DNA from: an uncultured Chloroflexia bacterium
Lineage (GTDB): Bacteria > Chloroflexota > Chloroflexia > Thermomicrobiales > Thermomicrobiaceae
NCBI GenBank assembly: GCA_963789565.1
Contig: CAWBKX010000001.1
Coordinates: forward strand, 11,004 to 75,003
DNA length: 64,000 bases
Direction: 5' to 3'
Shown: piece after piece, positions 6,312-15,522 of the stretch
How the letters are laid out: every line of letters starts with the position of its first letter
Numbering within the stretch: the stretch's first letter is position 1
Made by a program: the position numbers and the translations under genes
The notes under the pieces: model-generated
Told to the model about the DNA's origin: nothing
The model's database searches: none
The model's input: the letters and a program-made list of their open reading frames with translations, nothing else

Positions 6312-6680
6312 CACGTCCATTCTCGAATTGACACATTCATGTATTTCTCGAAAAGCATTCCACTGAACGCACCAGGCACAATAAGCTGATTGTCGTTTCT
6401 GGACTGATTTTCACGTTCCGGCGCACCGGCATTTTGCTTGAGCGCCAAATGAACAAACGGCACCCAGGTATCTGCAAAATCCGACAGCACCACTAACACG
6501 AAAATAACGCTCCATTGTTATGGTGAGCAATTAGGGGCACCGACTTTCGGACTCGGTGGGCCATTTTGCCGTCAAATCAGGGAACATCGGCTTTTTACGC
6601 GTTGGCGGACCTGGAAGCAAACGCGCGTATGGCTTTCAGGTGACGGGCCGGTGAGTCTGTCGGTAAGGGATAGGGAATAC

Positions 6681-9215
6681 ATGATTCAACGCGTTGGGCG
6701 CTGGCTCGGGGTGCTTCTCCTGGTAAGCGGCCTGGTGGGTGCCGTCATGCCAGCAAATGCGCTTGCCGCCACCAGCCACTACTACACGCTCCAGGTGCTG
6801 CCGATGCCGTCGGGCACCGATGGGTGGCAAATGGGAGGCAGTATTGTCGACGACGCTGAGGACGTCGTGAGTGCCGCGACTGAGCCCGGGAATTTTCAGC
6901 ATGTGCTGATCTGGAAGAGCGGATCCAGTTCGGCTATCCAACCGGCGAGCTACGCCGAACTGGTGAACGTGACACACGGCGGAACGGTCCTCTACTGGAA
7001 TCTTTCCGACGGCCAGTTGCATCAATACGTCATTTCCACCAGTACCGACTCGCTGGCGACCAACGTGCTCCTAGGTGCGGCCGCCATGAACGCGTCTCAA
7101 GTAATGGTCGGCACGTATCTGCCGTCGAATAGTCAGATTCCTGCCGCCGGTAAGGCACCACTCGGTTCGACCAACGTGAACCAGATCACTGATCTCGGAT
7201 TCGGCATCGACTCGGGTGCCAATGACATCAACGATTCCGGTGACGTGGTCGGCTACGGATCGTGTTCAACCGCAACGCAATGTGCTTACTACTACGATCA
7301 CTCGACGCACACGGCGACGTCGCTCGGTCCAGACGGCAGCGATCAAACCGCGACCATGCAGGCGATCGCGATCAACGCATCAGGAGAAGCGGCCGGTAAC
7401 TCGTGGTTCAACTACGGCTACAACCGTCCACCCTTCAAATACACAAAAGCTGGGGGAGTCGAGTTTCTGGGTATGGGGACATCGCCCACCGGCATCGCGA
7501 ATGACATCAATTCCGCGGGCGATATCGTGGGCCAGGTCACCGGCTTGGGCGCCGTCCTCTGGCCCTCCGACTCGACCGACCCCATCGAGCTGAGCAAACA
7601 GATCGTCCTTAGCAATCTCACCGGGTGGAGCCTCGATTACGGGGAGTCAATCAACGACGATGGCGTCATCACGGCACTCGGCTCGCTGAGTGGCCAGTCG
7701 ACCACATTCGTACTTGCTCCAGCACTCGACGGGACCGCACCGAGGAGCACCGGGACAATCGTTGATGGGTCCGACACGCTTGCGACCCCGAACGGCGCGG
7801 GCTGGTACAACGACTCCACGCTGAAGCTCCGAATTCAGGTCCAGGACAACGAAGACGGATTCGGAGTCAAAAATCTGACGCTGACCGTCAACAGTAGTAC
7901 GTCAACGCTCGCCACGGGCAATAACGGCCAACCGTTCGATGCCGTTACATTCTCGGAAGGCACCAACTCAGTCAGCTACTACGGTACAGACCTCGCAGGT
8001 AACTCCGAGACTGCTCACAATCTCACTGTCAAATACGACAAGACCGCGCCAACCTTTGATTGTGTCGGGGTTCCGACAGGTTGGACCAAGGGAAATATAG
8101 ACGTCACGTGTACACCCATCGACACGGTTTCTGGCGTCGCCAGCCCAATCGGCACCTTCAATCTCTCGACAAACGTTCCGGACGGCACGGAGACGGACGC
8201 CGCGACGAGCAACTCAGTCACGGTGTGTGATGTCGCCGACAACTGTTCTGACGCGCAGCTCAGCGGATTGATGATCGACAACAAGGCACCCGACGTCAGT
8301 TGCGCTGCGACCGACGACGCATGGCACGGCAGTGACGTCGTCCTGAACTGCACGTCAACGGACTCGGGTTCCGGTCTGGCAAACGACTCGGATGCACAGT
8401 TCACCTTATCGACCAACGTCGCCAGTGGCAGCGAGACCGACACCGCCGGCACCGACAGTCGGCAGGTCTGCGACGCCGTCAACAACTGCGTCACGGTTGG
8501 ACCGTTTGGGCCGGTCAAGGTTGACAAGAAAGGTCCGGACCTCAGCGGCGCTCCGACCAGTGCCGCCAATGAAAACGGCTGGTACGACCAGTCCGTGACC
8601 ATTCACTGGACGTGCTCGGATGCCGGTTCAGGCGTCAATGCGTGCCCGGATGACAAGCAAATCACAACAGAAGGCACCGGACTGACTGCGTCAGCAAACG
8701 CCGTCGATAACGTCGGCAACCAAACCACGGCGGACAGCAGCCCAGGCGTGAACATCGATTTGACGGCGCCCACGGTGTCATATACCGGCAATCAGGGGAC
8801 ATACAGCGTTGATCAGACGGTCAACATTGCCTGCAACGCCAACGACGCGCTCTCTGGGATCGACACGTCCAATTGCCAGGACATCAACGGCCCCGCGTGG
8901 TCGTTCGCACTGGGTTCCAACGAATACCGTGCGTCGGCGATCGATAAGGCCGGCAACGTCGGCAATGGCAATGTCAGCTTCACCGTCTCGGTGACGCCGG
9001 ACAGTTTGTGCGCCTTGACCAAGCAGATGGTCCGGAACAAGACGAGCGGGACGCTTCTGTGCCAGCCCTTGATCGGCGCGAAGTTCGCCGAATCAATGCA
9101 CATTCCGTTCGTGAAGCACATGTACGTTCAGGTCTATGTCATCAAGGTCAAAATGGAGTGGAGCCTAACTCCGAGCCAGAAGTCGACGCTGATCCGGCTC
9201 GCGCGAGGTTTGTAG
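6681..9215 (+). CDS. Large secreted protein: HAF-type extracellular repeats plus about five Ig-like repeats and a helical C-terminal tail
   Basis: ATG at 6681. The signal peptide is MIQRVGRWLGVLLLVSGLVGAVMPANALA. It has repeated xINDSGDVVGYG / AINASGEAAGNS / DINSAGDIVGQV / SINDDGVITALGS units. Repeated D(K/N/L)(T/K)(A/G)P ... C(T/S)..D..SG(V/L/I) modules follow. Confidence 0.75.
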   Translation: MIQRVGRWLGVLLLVSGLVGAVMPANALAATSHYYTLQVLPMPSGTDGWQMGGSIVDDAEDVVSAATEPGNFQHVLIWKSGSSSAIQPASYAELVNVTHGGTVLYWNLSDGQLHQYVISTSTDSLATNVLLGAAAMNASQVMVGTYLPSNSQIPAAGKAPLGSTNVNQITDLGFGIDSGANDINDSGDVVGYGSCSTATQCAYYYDHSTHTATSLGPDGSDQTATMQAIAINASGEAAGNSWFNYGYNRPPFKYTKAGGVEFLGMGTSPTGIANDINSAGDIVGQVTGLGAVLWPSDSTDPIELSKQIVLSNLTGWSLDYGESINDDGVITALGSLSGQSTTFVLAPALDGTAPRSTGTIVDGSDTLATPNGAGWYNDSTLKLRIQVQDNEDGFGVKNLTLTVNSSTSTLATGNNGQPFDAVTFSEGTNSVSYYGTDLAGNSETAHNLTVKYDKTAPTFDCVGVPTGWTKGNIDVTCTPIDTVSGVASPIGTFNLSTNVPDGTETDAATSNSVTVCDVADNCSDAQLSGLMIDNKAPDVSCAATDDAWHGSDVVLNCTSTDSGSGLANDSDAQFTLSTNVASGSETDTAGTDSRQVCDAVNNCVTVGPFGPVKVDKKGPDLSGAPTSAANENGWYDQSVTIHWTCSDAGSGVNACPDDKQITTEGTGLTASANAVDNVGNQTTADSSPGVNIDLTAPTVSYTGNQGTYSVDQTVNIACNANDALSGIDTSNCQDINGPAWSFALGSNEYRASAIDKAGNVGNGNVSFTVSVTPDSLCALTKQMVRNKTSGTLLCQPLIGAKFAESMHIPFVKHMYVQVYVIKVKMEWSLTPSQKSTLIRLARGL

Positions 9216-9476: not shown

Positions 9477-11003
9477 CTACGAATCCGCCCAGAACCGCGA
9501 GTTTCGACCCGATTGATCGTTTCCCTGGTTCTCCGACTCGCTCTGTTCCAACATACGCGCTTGCGCAAACCCAAGGATCGTGACGAAGACCACCCCCCCG
9601 ATCAGATTTCCCAGGAGTGCGGGAACGAAGTTGCCCGTGAACCAGTCTCCTATGGAGATCGGAGCGCCTAGCATCATGGCCGTGAAGATTTCCGGTGCCG
9701 AAATGACCACGTGGTTGAAGTGAGCCGCCACGATCAGGAAGCCGGTCATCCAGATGATGACCAATCGTGGTCCGAGACCGGTGGCTGCCAGAATCAACCA
9801 GGTCATGATCGTCATGAGCCATCCAGCAAAGATGGCTTTCATAAAGGCATCCCAGAACGGGTAGTTGACCTTGTCCACCGCGACCTGTTTGAGAAAATCG
9901 GCCGAAGGACCGCTCAGCACGCCAGTGCGGCTCATGAGGAATGCCGCGATGACGCTTCCCACCATGTTGAAGAACAGAACGTAGCCCCACAGCTCCAGCA
10001 GATCTCGAAGCGTGCCCCGACCGCGGATGACTCCCGTGATTGGAAACAGGAAATTCTCAGTGAAAAGCTCGCCCTTGCCCACCAGCACGATGACGAATCC
10101 GATGGGGAATACGAAGGCTGCCAACCACTGCGCGCGTTCGAATCCAAGACTCGCCATCCACGGTCCAGCGGTCCATGACATGGCGATGGCTCCGAAGCTC
10201 ACACCAAACGCTCCGAGCAGAGCGGTGATCGCGTGCGCCGGATTGAGACGTCGCAGACGTCTGGCGCCGACCTGAGCCGCAGTTTCAATGACTTCCGGAG
10301 ACTCCGCGCCGAGTGCGTTTTCGCGTTCATCCGATGCCTGCTTCTCGGTTCTCGTTTCGACTCTCGTTTGCGCGCGGTCGCGCATGCGGGCCACATCGTC
10401 GTCGATAGTGCTGAGGCGATCACGCGAGATACGAAACTGGTTTCGCGCCGAAGACGAGATCAGATCCTGCTCTTCGTCGACCAACTCTGACAGGAGCCGG
10501 CTCAGACGCTCCCCCGCGCGACCAATTTCGCCCATCAATCCGTGAAGGTCGGGAGGCCCGGCCCCGTCCTGTCGGTGGGGCGGTTTGGATCGAGACTCGT
10601 TCGCCTGGACGTCGCGCTCAATCGACAGGAGCACGAGGTGAAAGACGTCCACAACCTGCGACAGCAACACCGCGGCGAAATCAGCGGCGGAGCGATCCTT
10701 TCGCCCTGAGAATCGGGCAAATGCACGACGCACGGGAGTCAGCGTCCGAGGCTGAAGTACGGCCAGAAAGCTATTGCCGACCAGGATGTCGAGCCGATCC
10801 CACGTGATTGCGTTCTCATCGGGCAGTGAAGGGACGTTGCAGCGGATGTGAAGCTGCTGAGCATCATCCGACCACGCTAGTCCCGGCGCGATCTGCCGAT
10901 CCTGAACGTGTTCAAGGAGTGATTCGTCGATTGCGAATCGCGCGGAAAGCCGCTGAAGCTCGTCGTGGCTCGGTCGCACGAGTTCCACGAAATCGAACGG
11001 CAA
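9477..11003 (-). CDS. Formate/nitrite transporter (FNT) family channel with ~255-aa CorA-like N-terminal cytoplasmic domain
   Basis: The C-terminal half has FNT hallmarks: VGKGELFTENF, FNHVVISAPE (central His) and LLGNLIGGVVFV. The N-terminal half has a CorA-like pattern (DILVGNSFLAVLQPR ... DFAAVLLSQVVDVFHLVLLSIERDVQ and long charged helices). Confidence 0.75.
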   Translation of the reverse strand: MPFDFVELVRPSHDELQRLSARFAIDESLLEHVQDRQIAPGLAWSDDAQQLHIRCNVPSLPDENAITWDRLDILVGNSFLAVLQPRTLTPVRRAFARFSGRKDRSAADFAAVLLSQVVDVFHLVLLSIERDVQANESRSKPPHRQDGAGPPDLHGLMGEIGRAGERLSRLLSELVDEEQDLISSSARNQFRISRDRLSTIDDDVARMRDRAQTRVETRTEKQASDERENALGAESPEVIETAAQVGARRLRRLNPAHAITALLGAFGVSFGAIAMSWTAGPWMASLGFERAQWLAAFVFPIGFVIVLVGKGELFTENFLFPITGVIRGRGTLRDLLELWGYVLFFNMVGSVIAAFLMSRTGVLSGPSADFLKQVAVDKVNYPFWDAFMKAIFAGWLMTIMTWLILAATGLGPRLVIIWMTGFLIVAAHFNHVVISAPEIFTAMMLGAPISIGDWFTGNFVPALLGNLIGGVVFVTILGFAQARMLEQSESENQGNDQSGRNSRFWADS

Positions 11004-11255
11004 ATCTTCTGCTTGTTTTTCGACGGATGGAGGGATAACGCGGTCCGAGGCGTTCGTGTTGGCACCTCCTGAACGGTCCTATTCCGGGGCACCCCCACGC
11101 ATCATTTCAGCCACTTGCTGGTGAAGCACATGGGGTTGCCGGAAGCACGAGAACGCACGCGAGATGCCATGAACGGATACCTCGTCGGCATGTGAGTCTG
11201 GCGCGAACCAGCGGGAAGAATTGGGGGCATGGGGTGCGCTCGCGGCGACCCGAGG

Positions 11256-13391
11256 CTAGTTGGTACCCTCGACGAGATTCGAGATGAGCATGGCGTAATA
11301 GTTGGCGCCGACCGGACGTAGATGAATGCCGTCATCCCAGAAGAGCTCAGGGTGGTTCGCGGTGGCATCGTGCCAATTGAGGAGCGCGGCGTTCGAGTAG
11401 CGGGAAACTCCCGCCGCCAGAATGTCGTTGTTTGGGGCCTCCCAATCTCGTGAAACACGCAAGTTCACGAAGATGACCCGGCGCTTATCCCCAACGATCG
11501 ACATCAACTGATCGAACTGATCCGTCGTCATCGGACCGTTGTTGCCGATATCGACAACGACGATTTGCCGAAGGTCTCCAGCGTTGCTGCGTGCTTGCAG
11601 AATCTGAATCGCTTCAGAGACCTGCAACCCTACCTTCGCGTCGAGATCGAGATTCGGAATGTCGTTCACCAGTTCATCGGCCGCACCAAGCATCACCGAG
11701 TCGCCAACTGCCGTTACCGTCGGCGCGGAGGCATAGTCGGCACCCGCCGTCGGGGTTGGCGCGGGAGGCGGGGTCGGAACTGGTGTTGGTGTATCGGTCG
11801 GAGTCGGAGTAGGGGTGTCTGTCGGCTCCTCCGTGGCCACGGTTGCCAACGTTGGGGCCGCGGTCGGGATAGGTGTCGGCGTTGATGTCGGCGCGACGAC
11901 CGCTTGAGCCGTCGGCGTGACTCCGGGCGTTGGAGTCGGCAAGACGGTCGGGAGCGGTGGTGGCGGGCTGGACACGATATGGACTTCCTGGACGCTCAAA
12001 TACGAGGGCGGCACACCTGGATGCGCGCGCACGACGGCTACACCCAGGGTGACGGTCGAGATCGCCAGCGCCCCGCTGACACCGAGCCATCCAGCGCGCA
12101 CCACGCGCGGCTGCTCCGTACGCGACTGCGAAAACGCCCGCCAAGCGCGGCCGACGCGACCGCTGCGAAACGGTGTCTCGACGAATCTATATGAGATCTC
12201 GACGAAAGCCAGCGTTATCGCCAGGCGCAAGAGGAACAGCGGAAACCCGCTCAATGAAATGTCGAGACCAGGCCGTGTCACCATGAAGACCGGCCAGTGC
12301 CAGAGATAGATTCCGTAGGAACGCACGCCCACCCAGCGTAACGGAGGGCAGCCCAGCGCTCGCGAGAGCAGGCGCGACCGAGGATGAACCGTTGCGGCGA
12401 TCACGGCGGCGGTGGCCAACGCCACCAACAAGAATCCTCCCTGATAGAGAGTCGAATCAAATTCACCGAGGCGCCAGAACGCCAGAGCCACACCCAGCAG
12501 GCCGGCTATTCCCACGGCTTCAAGCATCACCTGCGCGCGGCGCCCCGGCCCGAGCCATGCCAACCCACGTGTCACCCATCCAATTGAGAACTTCGTCTCA
12601 CCGCCTGGCTGCCAGACGAACGCCAATGCGGCGCCCACCAGCAGTTCCGCGGCACGGGTATCTGTGCCGTAGTAGATGCGGGATGGATCGACACCAGGAC
12701 GGAAAAGGACTGCCATCAGCACGGTCGACACGCCCACGGCGCCGAGGACGCCGAGAATCACTTTGCGCTGACGCAAGCGGCTCATGCCGAGTGCAAAGAG
12801 CGGCGGCCAAATGAGATAGAACTGCTCCTCCACCGCCAGCGACCAGAGGTGCTTCAAAAGGGACAGCCGGCCCATCTCCTCGAAGTACGACCTATGCGCG
12901 AAGATCAGCCACCAATTCGTCACGTAGAAAGCCGCAGCGAGAGCGTCCGACCGAAGCTGCGTCACCTGCAGCGGCAAAAAGATCACGGAATAGGTCAAGG
13001 TGGCGATCAGCAGTAGGTAGAGCGCTGGCAGCAACCGCCGAGCTCGACGAATCCAGAAGGTCTTCAGATCGATGCGACCGGTTGAACGGAACTCGGAGAG
13101 GAGGAGCGAGGTGATGAGATACCCACTCAAGACGAAGAAGACTTCAACGCCCAGGAACCCACCCGGCAGCCAGTGAACGCTCGAGTGATACACCAGAACC
13201 GCGAGAACCGCGACGGCTCTCAGTCCGTCCAGAGCGGGAATGTATGGGAGACGGGGACCTGACTGGCGCTGGGTGGCACCAGTGACACGTTCAGCCGTGA
13301 AATAGCGATCCCAAAATGTCGCGGACGCCGCCTCATCACAGCGTGCAACCTCCGCGGCTCGGCTCATCTCTTCCCCATCTGCCATACTCAT
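11256..13391 (-). CDS. Acyltransferase-3 family membrane O-acyltransferase with C-terminal SGNH domain (OatA/OafA-like)
   Basis: It has LDGLRAVAVLAVLVYH and about 10 TM segments, then a Pro/Thr-rich linker. The C-terminal VTAVGDSVMLGAA matches SGNH block I. Confidence 0.85.
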   Translation of the reverse strand: MSMADGEEMSRAAEVARCDEAASATFWDRYFTAERVTGATQRQSGPRLPYIPALDGLRAVAVLAVLVYHSSVHWLPGGFLGVEVFFVLSGYLITSLLLSEFRSTGRIDLKTFWIRRARRLLPALYLLLIATLTYSVIFLPLQVTQLRSDALAAAFYVTNWWLIFAHRSYFEEMGRLSLLKHLWSLAVEEQFYLIWPPLFALGMSRLRQRKVILGVLGAVGVSTVLMAVLFRPGVDPSRIYYGTDTRAAELLVGAALAFVWQPGGETKFSIGWVTRGLAWLGPGRRAQVMLEAVGIAGLLGVALAFWRLGEFDSTLYQGGFLLVALATAAVIAATVHPRSRLLSRALGCPPLRWVGVRSYGIYLWHWPVFMVTRPGLDISLSGFPLFLLRLAITLAFVEISYRFVETPFRSGRVGRAWRAFSQSRTEQPRVVRAGWLGVSGALAISTVTLGVAVVRAHPGVPPSYLSVQEVHIVSSPPPPLPTVLPTPTPGVTPTAQAVVAPTSTPTPIPTAAPTLATVATEEPTDTPTPTPTDTPTPVPTPPPAPTPTAGADYASAPTVTAVGDSVMLGAADELVNDIPNLDLDAKVGLQVSEAIQILQARSNAGDLRQIVVVDIGNNGPMTTDQFDQLMSIVGDKRRVIFVNLRVSRDWEAPNNDILAAGVSRYSNAALLNWHDATANHPELFWDDGIHLRPVGANYYAMLISNLVEGTN

Positions 13392-13938
13392 CCGGACCTC
13401 GCGCTCACGACCGCGTTCTGGGCCGCTTCGGTGGTAACCACGTCTACTACCAGCCAGTCCAGATTTCTGCCCTAATCATCCACCAAAACGTCGTGCAATG
13501 TCATGGAGCAGTCCGAACAGTTGCCCCTTTCGCTCAGGACATCCCTAGTACGCACCGATTGCGAGTCAGGTTACCCCGGATTACGGATCGAGACGAGAAT
13601 AACCTCCCTAGAATCGGAGCGTCGTTTGACCGGGAACAATACCCGTTCCAGAATACCAGCATGCCGCAACTTCCGCGACTGCGAAACTGGCCTAGAGACA
13701 GTTAATGAAGTATCAACCACGGATTCACAGCGCTGGGTTTCACGTCCGGCGCGTTGTGTCGGCACCGTGCCGCTTAGTCAGCGTGAACCAAACCGGTGCT
13801 GGACGTTCGTAATATTTCGAGAAACGATGGCGCGCGCGACCGATATCGTGGATGATGAGCAGGCGAAAATACGACGACCACCACCCGAATGTGCGCGGAC
13901 CGGTGATGATCTGGAATCGTGTGTGCCCTGGAGGGACA

Positions 13939-15522
13939 ATGAAACGATTGATCCGACTCATTGCGTCGATCGCCTTCTTGCTGTCGCTCGTCGCAGCTTA
14001 CTCGATGGCTGGATCAACCGTTTCGGCGGATTCCAACTCGTCCTTTCCAAAATTTGATGCTCTTACGCCAGCGCCGTTCACCACTGTCGCGCCAGGGACG
14101 TTCTCAATCAGTGCCCACGCTCAGTCGGACGTTGCGCTGTCGGACGTAACCTTGATGCTGAACGACTCGAAGATTGCCGAAACCGGCAGCGCAACGTCCA
14201 GTTCCGTCACGATCTCACAAACACAGCTCCTTTCTGCCGGTACCTACACCGCTACGGTGACCGCGACGGATGCCGATGGCAAACAATTCAAAGCGCAATG
14301 GGATTTCGTGGTGTCAGACCACGCCAGCGAATCGGAATGGTTCGACGAGAACGGTCAGCCAAAGGCAGATCAGATCAACGCCACGATCCGTTCACTGGTC
14401 GAAGCGTTTCGATGGCATCTGTACGGGCTCTCCTGGGACGGAGCAGATCACCCGGATCTGCCGACTCATGTCGGTCTGACTGGGACAGGCTCTCCGCTGA
14501 CACCGTGGGTGACCGGGACAACCTTCGACCAGGCAAATACCGAGGCGACGCTGCGGTCGCTGGTAGAGGCGTTCCGCTGGCACTTCTGGGGCATAAGTTG
14601 GGATGGAGCCGACCACCCAGACATCCCGACGCACGCGGGTTCGATTCAAGGGCCACAGAGCATCGACCCATGGTTCGACGGCAACGGAAACCCAATTCCC
14701 GACCACATTTCTGCCACTCTCGAAAGTCTGGTCGAAGCATTCCGCTGGCACTTCTGGGGCTACTCCTGGGACGGCAGCCCGCATCCGGACATGCCTTCGC
14801 ACGCGGAGTACCTGAACGGCAGCGCGACTGAACCGACTCCGCCGACCGATGAAGGCACCCCGACCCCAACCGAGTCAACTCCATCGAGCACGCCGTCGAG
14901 CACACCTTCGACAGGACCGGATGATGGCAACCCGCTCGAGGGCGACATCGCGTATCAGTCGGCGCTGACAACCGTCTCACCGTTCTCGTCTCCGGACGGC
15001 GCCAGCGGAAGCGCGGTCGCTGACGGCTACACCGTCACCCTGCCGCCGGGAGTCGCCGACGGCGTCACAAGTGGGTCAGCGGACTTTGGCGACGCGTCGT
15101 ACAGCCTCGACATCAAGAAGCTGACATCGGACGGAAACGCCACCGGCTGCCTTGTCTACCGTGCGACTCAGACCGGTTCGAGCGGCGCGTTCTATCAGTA
15201 CTGCGTCCTCTACAGTGGCAATTCACTGGTTGGCGTTCAGGCGGTTCTTGTCACGTCAGACAATATCTCGTCTTCAACAAACGTCAGTCCGGTGGCTGGA
15301 TATCAGCTCAACACACCCGTTTCTGCACTTGATTGGCACACACTGAAGGTGATCGCCAGTGGCAACCAGTTCTGGTTCTACCTTGACGGCACGTATCAGG
15401 GAATGACGACGTACTCGGGCCCGTCGAGTGGAACGATTGGGTTCTCGGCGTTCAACCTCGACACCGATGTCACTCAGTCGTTCGAGTTCGCCAACCTCAC
15501 CGTCAAGAACCTTCAGCCGTAG
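13939..15522 (+). CDS. Secreted protein: Ig-like N-domain, three tandem ~55-aa His/Trp-rich repeats, PT linker, concanavalin/LamG-like C-domain
   Basis: ATG at 13939 with GGAGGG upstream. The signal peptide is MKRLIRLIASIAFLLSLVAAYSMAGSTVSA. The motif SLVEAFRWH(L/F)(Y/W)G(L/I/Y)SWDG..HPD.P(T/S)H occurs three times. The C-terminal WHTLKVIASGNQFWFYLDG is jelly-roll-like. Confidence 0.7.
   Translation: MKRLIRLIASIAFLLSLVAAYSMAGSTVSADSNSSFPKFDALTPAPFTTVAPGTFSISAHAQSDVALSDVTLMLNDSKIAETGSATSSSVTISQTQLLSAGTYTATVTATDADGKQFKAQWDFVVSDHASESEWFDENGQPKADQINATIRSLVEAFRWHLYGLSWDGADHPDLPTHVGLTGTGSPLTPWVTGTTFDQANTEATLRSLVEAFRWHFWGISWDGADHPDIPTHAGSIQGPQSIDPWFDGNGNPIPDHISATLESLVEAFRWHFWGYSWDGSPHPDMPSHAEYLNGSATEPTPPTDEGTPTPTESTPSSTPSSTPSTGPDDGNPLEGDIAYQSALTTVSPFSSPDGASGSAVADGYTVTLPPGVADGVTSGSADFGDASYSLDIKKLTSDGNATGCLVYRATQTGSSGAFYQYCVLYSGNSLVGVQAVLVTSDNISSSTNVSPVAGYQLNTPVSALDWHTLKVIASGNQFWFYLDGTYQGMTTYSGPSSGTIGFSAFNLDTDVTQSFEFANLTVKNLQP

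Follow-up and report, generated by a model that had tools for sequence, protein, structure and literature searches.

We analysed a 64,000-nucleotide stretch of DNA from an uncultured Chloroflexia bacterium (positions 11,004 to 75,003 of contig CAWBKX010000001.1, assembly GCA_963789565.1; this whole stretch is called the window below), and found that the gene at 9477..11003 on the minus strand encodes two channel families in a single polypeptide. A complete CorA-type cytoplasmic domain, comprising the alpha/beta part and the long willow and stalk helices, is joined to a complete six-helix channel from the FNT family (formate/nitrite transporters). Such CorA-FNT fusions are rare. With moderate confidence, we favor the reading that the protein is a pentameric FNT channel in which a CorA-derived ring acts on the five N-terminal helices of the channel as a sensor or regulator, and that the effector is something other than Mg2+.

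The gene is one unbroken open reading frame (ORF) of 508 codons plus stop, starting from TTG at 11003 and giving 508 amino acids. Both halves of the product scored above the curated Pfam cut-offs by which the domain calls were judged. PF01544 (CorA) covers residues 4-213 and profile positions 5-217 of 292 (43.7 bits against a cut-off of 27, E 2.9e-11), and PF01226 (FNT, Form_Nir_trans) covers residues 237-477 and profile positions 1-237 of 240 (179.5 bits, E 9.5e-53). Scores of this size lie well outside what chance would give. NCBIfam agreed on this domain picture, with the protein far under the equivalog cut-offs for FocA, NirC and CorA. An earlier note on this DNA had quoted five motifs from the protein, and every one was located, namely DILVGNSFLAVLQ at residue 72, DFAAVLLSQVVDVFHLVLLSIERDVQ at 108, GKGELFTEN at 309, FNHVVIS at 429 and GNLIGGVVFV at 465. 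The features of the gene are listed here, with the supporting evidence in brackets. T. maritima CorA is abbreviated TmCorA, AlphaFold2 AF2, hidden Markov model HMM, and the ratio of nonsynonymous to synonymous substitution rates dN/dS.

9477..11003, minus strand: whole fusion gene (ORF list, translation, Pfam).
10359..11003, minus strand: CorA-type cytoplasmic domain, residues ~1-215, with the alpha/beta part at 1-98 and helices at 106-137, 153-176 and 184 to ~215 (Pfam, AF2, Foldseek, hhalign, dN/dS).
10908..10910, minus strand: codon of H32, equivalent of TmCorA D89 in Mg2+ sensor site M1 (hhalign and column counts).
10428..10430, minus strand: codon of I192, equivalent of TmCorA D253 in Mg2+ sensor site M1 (HMM alignment to the TmCorA D253K/R chains, hhalign, counts).
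10296..10358, minus strand: acidic, poorly conserved linker, residues ~216-236 (AF2, Asp-to-junction distance).
10248..10310, minus strand: N-terminal amphipathic helix of the FNT module, residues 232-252, from the GAESPEV motif and with invariant R249 (conserved columns, HMM, AF2).
9573..10295, minus strand: FNT channel core, residues 237-477, with pore residues F299, F303, L313, F314, T315, E316, K378, G394, M397, I424, N430, H431, I434, S435 and E438 (Pfam PF01226, PDB sequence matches, Foldseek, pore mapping).

The kinship of the N-terminal half (the N-domain) to CorA was visible only by family profile and fold searches, and a pairwise sequence search of this domain against the PDB returned nothing. 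When the N-domain alone was modeled by AF2 with the family alignment, the predicted local distance difference test (pLDDT) score was 91.8 and the predicted TM-score (pTM) was 0.87, and the model had its elements arranged as in CorA, with three long helices after an alpha/beta start. In a Foldseek search of the PDB, the top 50 matches to this model were all members of the CorA superfamily (T. maritima and M. jannaschii CorA, ZntB, CmaX), with E down to 6e-10 and a query TM-score of 0.65-0.81 over 204-239 columns. A profile of 20 N-domains matched TmCorA among PDB sequences at E 6e-9, and hhalign aligned the N-domain profile to 120 canonical CorAs over all 223 columns (probability 99.9%, E 2.7e-33). 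The resemblance to CorA, for which the earlier note had proposed an HHpred- or Foldseek-type check, was thus confirmed. The N-domain has the same cytoplasmic fold and element order as TmCorA (PDB 2BBJ/2IUB/4I0U/3JCF-3JCH) of the MIT superfamily, which includes ZntB, CmaX and Mrs2.

We also searched 1.84 billion representative proteins with the N-domain profile. The fusion family came first (E<1e-26), followed by ordinary CorAs of ~320 aa (E 4e-14 and weaker), and 883 matches were obtained at E<1e-3. Among the 145 best matches, PF01544 was present in 142 and PF01226 in 4, and no further Pfam family was found, leaving FNT as the sole alternative membrane partner there. Several CorA-type residues are retained in the window protein: D195/R196 match TmCorA D256/H257, and R162 matches a conserved Arg in CorA alpha6. 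The residues invariant in the fusion family are H/Q32, Q34, G41, R54, P58, R70 and D72, and also W68, R162, D195 and R196. Judging from secondary structure and strand register, R54 and D72 would be cross-strand neighbors, and W68, R70 and D72 would lie on one face of the sheet.

The membrane part of CorA and its Mg2+ sensor are lost from the fusion. The two CorA transmembrane helices (TM1-loop-TM2) are absent, as the Pfam match stops at 217/292 and is followed by the charged linker and the FNT domain. The GMN motif was found in none of the 22 fusion proteins aligned, and the window protein also has neither GVN nor GIN. TmCorA numbering was anchored on the D253K/R mutant chains in the PDB profile search. 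The D89 column holds H or Q in 22/22 fusion proteins, and D in 89/120 (74%) of the canonical CorAs, where it is acidic in 79%. The D253 column is A, V, I, G, L, T or S and never acidic in all 22 fusion proteins, while D/E occupies it in 96/120 (80%) of the canonical CorAs, with D in 70%. The D175 column, read from the hhalign alignment in the window protein only, corresponds to S115, and 100/120 canonical CorAs have D there. Across the 120 canonical CorAs, the three columns are acidic in about 80-90% (D in 70-83%).

A separate canonical CorA, recognisable by its ED, YDH and YGMNF motifs, is encoded in the same genome. This gene, the only canonical CorA of the genome, lies at C1:85746-86612 (locus L002), ~10.7 kb past the end of the window on the same contig C1; the contig is ~92 kb long, carries the window and is separate from the 3.3-Mb contig of the genome, and may be a plasmid, a second replicon or a fragment left unjoined in assembly. 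CorA-type divalent-cation sensing or gating by the N-domain is unlikely, since the D89 and D253 equivalents are substituted in 22/22 fusion proteins, with S115 standing in for D175 in the window protein, and since the genome holds its own canonical CorA. The earlier note had suggested gating by a divalent cation or another ligand, and these substitutions disfavor the first of the two. TmCorA has an axial cation pore, GMN and the Mg2+-sensor Asp residues, whereas the fusion family instead has Q34, R54, W68, R70 and D72.

To locate the junction, we used the conserved Asp of the YDH motif (TmCorA D256, here D195). This residue lies exactly 35 residues ahead of TM1 in 110/120 canonical CorAs, and the distance from the same Asp to the FNT motif GAESPEV is 32-39 residues in the fusions (median 33). 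These near-equal distances indicate that the FNT module replaces the membrane part of CorA at the former membrane boundary, where TM1 would start. The GAESPEV helix was assigned to the FNT module because stand-alone relatives also have it, matching the family FNT HMM from position 1. AF2 placed a helix at residues 237-251, and the invariant columns are E234, P236 (at least 90%), E237, G246 and R249. The linker between the halves (~216-236) is acidic and the least conserved part of the protein, with prolines in several members and an AF2 pLDDT <50 at residues 220-243. In the model, the connection thus appears to be a tether rather than a continuous stalk-TM1 helix as in CorA. While the CorA stalk continues into the pore helix, that of the fusion ends in an acidic flexible linker, with the length of the stalk up to the boundary kept.

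The closest solved structures of the FNT half by sequence are Chlamydomonas LCIA (E 6.8e-23, 31% identity) and C. difficile HSC (E 8e-16), followed by PfFNT, VcFocA, NirC and EcFocA. Foldseek comparison of this half with PfFNT, LCIA, FocA and HSC gave target-normalised TM-scores of 0.71-0.82. Pore positions are given in 3KCU numbering as defined in PMC5525234, and were mapped by MAFFT alignment and direct counting; hmmalign misplaces FocA near its S-loop insertion, and FocA numbering was therefore taken from the MAFFT alignment. From FocA to the fusion, the central constriction changes from F75/F202/H209/A212 to F299/I424/H431/I434, and the cytoplasmic slit from L79/L89/T91/V175 to F303/L313/T315/M397. 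Other pore changes are N172 to G394, E208 to N430 and N213 to S435. The S-loop His H431 (FocA H209) is present in 25/26 fusions, the Omega-loop T315 (T91) in 24/26, L313 (Leu-89) in 26/26, and K378, the equivalent of the vestibular Lys-156, is K in 24/26.

FocA (E. coli, Salmonella, Vibrio; PDB 3KCU, 3Q7K, 3KLY, 9G49) therefore shares with the fusion the FNT fold and the equivalents of H431, T315 and K378, and in both there are two hydrophobic constrictions, and an amphipathic helix at the N-terminus lies on the cytoplasmic face. Identity between the two is only ~23%, with the differences L79F, N172G, F202I, A212I, E208N, N213S, S92E and M216E. In the fusion, a 230-residue CorA domain stands ahead of this helix, where FocA has ~10 free residues, and the fusion gene has no pflB neighbor. 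LCIA (a bicarbonate-related FNT, PDB 9V2A) and C. difficile HSC carry the canonical (L/F)EHSVAN S-loop motif and are without an extra cytoplasmic domain.

When the family FNT HMM was compared with E. coli proteins, YfdC was the best match (E 2.8e-32), far ahead of FocA (5.5e-15) and NirC (8.3e-13). The fusions and YfdC (YfdC-alpha/beta; Mukherjee et al. 2017, PMC5525234) have in common LFTEN, Gly 172, Phe 79, Ile/Val at 202 and 212, and a vestibular Glu pair, here E316 and E438 (3KCU positions 92 and 216). The YfdC-alpha signature consists of Glu 92 and 216, Gly 172, the lack of Lys-156, and Tyr 75. Compared with the YfdC clade, the fusion keeps Lys-156 (K378), has Arg rather than Glu at 249, and has Phe rather than Tyr at 75. 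By these residues, the profile matches and the tree described below, the FNT half falls outside YfdC-alpha, in an uncharacterised subgroup related to YfdC. Given the retained Lys-156 equivalent and R249, a small monovalent anion or a weak acid is its likely but not certain substrate. The uncertainty comes from the presence of the two YfdC-type vestibular Glu residues, which a molecular dynamics study held responsible for EcYfdC not conducting anions (bioRxiv 10.1101/637116).

The fusion recurs in other genomes. In a collection of 5.8 billion proteins, ~23 clusters carry both Pfam domains (475-546 aa, 38-88% identity), and an exhaustive profile search with the N-domain alone added four more divergent representatives. 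In total, at least 26 fusion proteins were found, in Thermomicrobiales (Chloroflexota) and Myxococcaceae. The earlier note had proposed a survey of the architecture across genomes; a pattern-based scan of 185,579 species-representative genomes gave a lower bound of 12 with a full-length fusion, in two phyla. Eight of them are Thermomicrobiales/Chloroflexia metagenome-assembled genomes (MAGs), one labeled Nitrolancea sp. The other four are two Myxococcaceae MAGs and the genomes of Pyxidicoccus fallax DSM 14698 and Archangium minus Cbm 6, the last of which is complete. A region-restricted search for N-domain homologues returned at least four close relatives, a count that the word-index limit makes uninformative. 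An identical window protein was also found on an independent read-level assembly. With the ORF continuous in independent assemblies and homologous fusions present in two phyla, the artefact that the earlier note had considered, such as a frameshift joining two genes, does not account for the fusion. Among the 80+ related loci that we retrieved, no unfused or split-gene (trans) N-domain was found.

In comparisons with the nearest orthologues, the N-domain had a dN/dS of 0.11-0.13 and the FNT domain one of ~0.02. Purifying selection thus acts on both halves, with the N-domain evolving ~5 times faster. In a maximum likelihood tree, all 26 fusion FNT domains fell within one clade, with a Shimodaira-Hasegawa-like approximate likelihood ratio test (SH-aLRT) support of 99. 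The neighbors of this clade are a clade of 38 stand-alone FNTs and the clade containing EcYfdC, and the branching order among these clades is not settled. The Myxococcaceae members form one sub-clade (SH-aLRT 96). Judging from labeled members and loci, Thermomicrobiales appear to be the source of the stand-alone clade and of half of the fusions. This distribution is consistent with an origin in Chloroflexota and later transfer, as read from a tree in which most sequences carry no taxon label.

Two members of the family are incomplete. P0012, from a Chloroflexia MAG (L012:5980-7263), ends prematurely inside the FNT domain while the similarity runs on to L012:7471, which corresponds to a frameshift or a long-read indel, and P0010 (382 aa) is without the alpha/beta part of the CorA domain. 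These two are possibly decaying or mis-assembled copies. At the GC-rich myxobacterial loci L014 and L017 the ORF runs on for a long way upstream; these extensions contain no Pfam domains and were taken as spurious.

CorA and FNT proteins are both obligate homopentamers with cytoplasmic N-termini, and the CorA funnel alternates between symmetric and asymmetric states (PDB 3JCF-3JCH). Because both parent families share this assembly and orientation, the fusion protein is probably a homopentamer as well, with a CorA-like funnel hanging beneath five FNT pores. The N-terminal helix of FocA is dynamic and binds PflB, and its residues Y25, K26, T28 and K29 are needed for translocation (PMC12559229). 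In the reading that we favor, the funnel would be a sensor or docking module. Its conformational state, either symmetric or asymmetric in the manner of CorA, would reach the N-terminal helices of the FNT by way of the tether; in FocA, the corresponding helices control translocation. The effector would not be Mg2+ at the canonical CorA sites M1/M2, and its binding may involve H/Q32, Q34, R54, W68, R70 and D72. As a more specific and tentative proposal, the protein could be a ligand-gated pentameric channel of a previously unrecognised kind. The metal site would have been lost and a new inter-subunit site (H/Q32, Q34, R54, R70, D72) gained, a cytoplasmic metabolite, possibly the transported anion, would be sensed, and the five parallel FNT pores would be controlled through their N-terminal helices by reuse of the symmetric-to-asymmetric switch of CorA.

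Several observations weigh against regulation of the channel by the ring. The five stalks of CorA converge on one axial pore, whereas an FNT pentamer has five separate pores, and we know of no precedent for an axial funnel gating five off-axis pores. Pentamer formation and any coupling are inferred. Because the linker is poorly conserved, contains prolines and has a pLDDT <50, gating by a rigid lever is unlikely, and any coupling could be weak. The fusion clade also contains six nested stand-alone FNTs. At least one of them (P0025, locus L033) is genuine, as its upstream DNA encodes no N-domain, so the channel can function when the funnel is absent. The N-domain was probably lost secondarily in some lineages, with the base of the clade not settled. 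The surroundings of the gene also offer no clue to a ligand or substrate: among the fusion loci compared, no neighbor gene was conserved across phyla, and Rfam gave no match at E<=1 in the 5' region of the window gene and only tRNAs in 11 homologous loci, which leaves no riboswitch.

Some of the same observations would fit a scaffold or docking platform, in which the CorA-derived ring stabilises the pentamer or receives a cytoplasmic enzyme or partner and channels substrate to or from the pores, like PflB on the N-terminus of FocA (PMC12559229). The loss of the canonical Mg2+ ligand site, the flexible linker and the nested stand-alone relatives, whose FNT works without the domain, agree with this explanation, and the N-domain evolves faster than the channel, as interaction surfaces often do. 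However, no neighbor gene conserved across phyla was found that could be the partner, FNT pentamers are stable alone and do not obviously need a scaffold, and the strictly conserved polar and charged cluster (H/Q32, Q34, R54, R70, D72) is more suggestive of a binding site than of a generic scaffold. We consider this explanation rather unlikely.

The divalent-cation sensor of the earlier note, in which cytoplasmic Mg2+, Co2+ or Zn2+ levels would open or close the FNT pores as in CorA, appears improbable. The whole fold of the CorA sensor domain is kept, together with D195/R196 and R162, and H/Q32 could in principle bind a transition metal. But the residues that replace the three sensor aspartates, in columns that are mostly acidic in canonical CorAs, and the canonical CorA gene of the same genome argue against it. 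An artefact or decaying gene, that is, two genes joined by a frameshift or by assembly, or an FNT gene preceded by what is left of a pseudogenised CorA, would be in line with the truncated P0012, the incomplete P0010 and the mis-set database start of the window gene, but it is effectively refuted by the ORF being continuous in the window, in independent assemblies and in raw-read assemblies, by 26 intact fusions in two phyla including complete genomes of cultured strains, by an N-domain dN/dS far under 1, and by the high confidence of the N-domain fold model.

To our knowledge, the soluble domain of every CorA-superfamily member studied has been considered together with its own axial pore, as a single unit, and gating is taken to run down the continuous stalk-TM1 helix. 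Here, evolution has separated the CorA soluble domain from that pore and attached it to a pentameric channel of another, unrelated family, which has five separate pores. If the N-domain still regulates, the CorA funnel would be a portable pentameric sensor module, and the fusion would be a natural system for the control of off-axis pores by a ring. If it is only a scaffold, the fusion would be a curiosity of domain shuffling. A reciprocal chimera is known in the CRISPR-associated CorA of Bacteroides fragilis, a SAM-AMP receptor, in which the CorA transmembrane part is combined with a soluble domain of a different fold (PMC10600005). That protein shows that a non-metal ligand at a cytoplasmic inter-subunit interface can control a pentameric CorA-type protein, and that the superfamily is modular (PMC10600005).

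The earlier note was not aware of this architecture having been characterised, and our literature search likewise turned up no description of a CorA-FNT fusion; the main paper on FNT phylogeny mentions neither fusions nor CorA. Automated annotation at JGI already names both domains in one protein (P0019). The fusion gives a handle on YfdC-like FNTs, and is further evidence for FNT N-termini as hot spots of regulation, as in FocA-PflB. Myxobacteria that are in culture and genetically tractable (Archangium, Pyxidicoccus) carry it, so its role is directly testable.

The start codon of the gene was re-assigned. The TTG at 11003 encodes the L of the conserved first beta-strand LPFxYxEL, and the interval from there back to the in-frame stop upstream contains no ATG, GTG or TTG. 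In the database, gene model P0002 (503 aa, GTG at 10988) trims five residues from this strand. On sequence grounds, TTG at 11003 is the best gene model and the database start is mis-set, because TTG is the only in-frame start that retains the strand. In more distant orthologues, the same Leu is CTG or CTT, and translation begins 20-33 codons further upstream. A strong Shine-Dalgarno-like AGGAGGTG is located at 11064-11071 on the minus strand, ~60 nt upstream of the TTG and within the open frame. It is followed by an ACG at suitable spacing and by no canonical start codon. Orthologues of the fusion protein carry 20-45 additional N-terminal residues. The true N-terminus may thus be slightly longer, by way of a non-canonical start.

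The fusion gene appears to be monocistronic, with a 252-bp gap upstream to an Acyl_transf_3 gene and a large secreted repeat protein convergent downstream. A sigma-70 promoter scan upstream of the fusion gene found nothing. The 711-aa product of the upstream gene (11256-13391, minus strand) is an OafA-like membrane acyltransferase, whose long linker is rich in Pro and Thr and whose C-terminal domain is extracytoplasmic. An Acyl_transf_3 gene lies directly upstream of the fusion gene also in Thermomicrobiales relatives down to ~55-60% identity (L007, L009, L012), and not in Myxococcota. As a functional partner it was dismissed, this being ordinary synteny within Thermomicrobiales. A glyoxalase/VOC domain adjoins the fusion gene in two unrelated genomes, Archangium minus (L013:7479-7892, 12 bp downstream) and a Thermomicrobiaceae MAG (L011:3446-5842, upstream). 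We considered this adjacency as a hint of a methylglyoxal- or lactate-type substrate and set it aside, the family being too common to carry weight.

The protein convergent with the fusion gene (6651-9215, plus strand) has 854 aa, a signal peptide, and repeated SG(V/L) and TAPT Ig-like modules. It gave only a sub-threshold HYR match and is probably a cell-surface protein. Another secreted protein of 556 aa is encoded at 13852-15522 on the plus strand and has a Big_7 Ig-like domain. We found that it also contains a conserved block without a Pfam family match, ~45 aa in length and present in three tandem copies of SLVEAFRWH[FL][WY]G.SWDG..HPD.P[ST]H.

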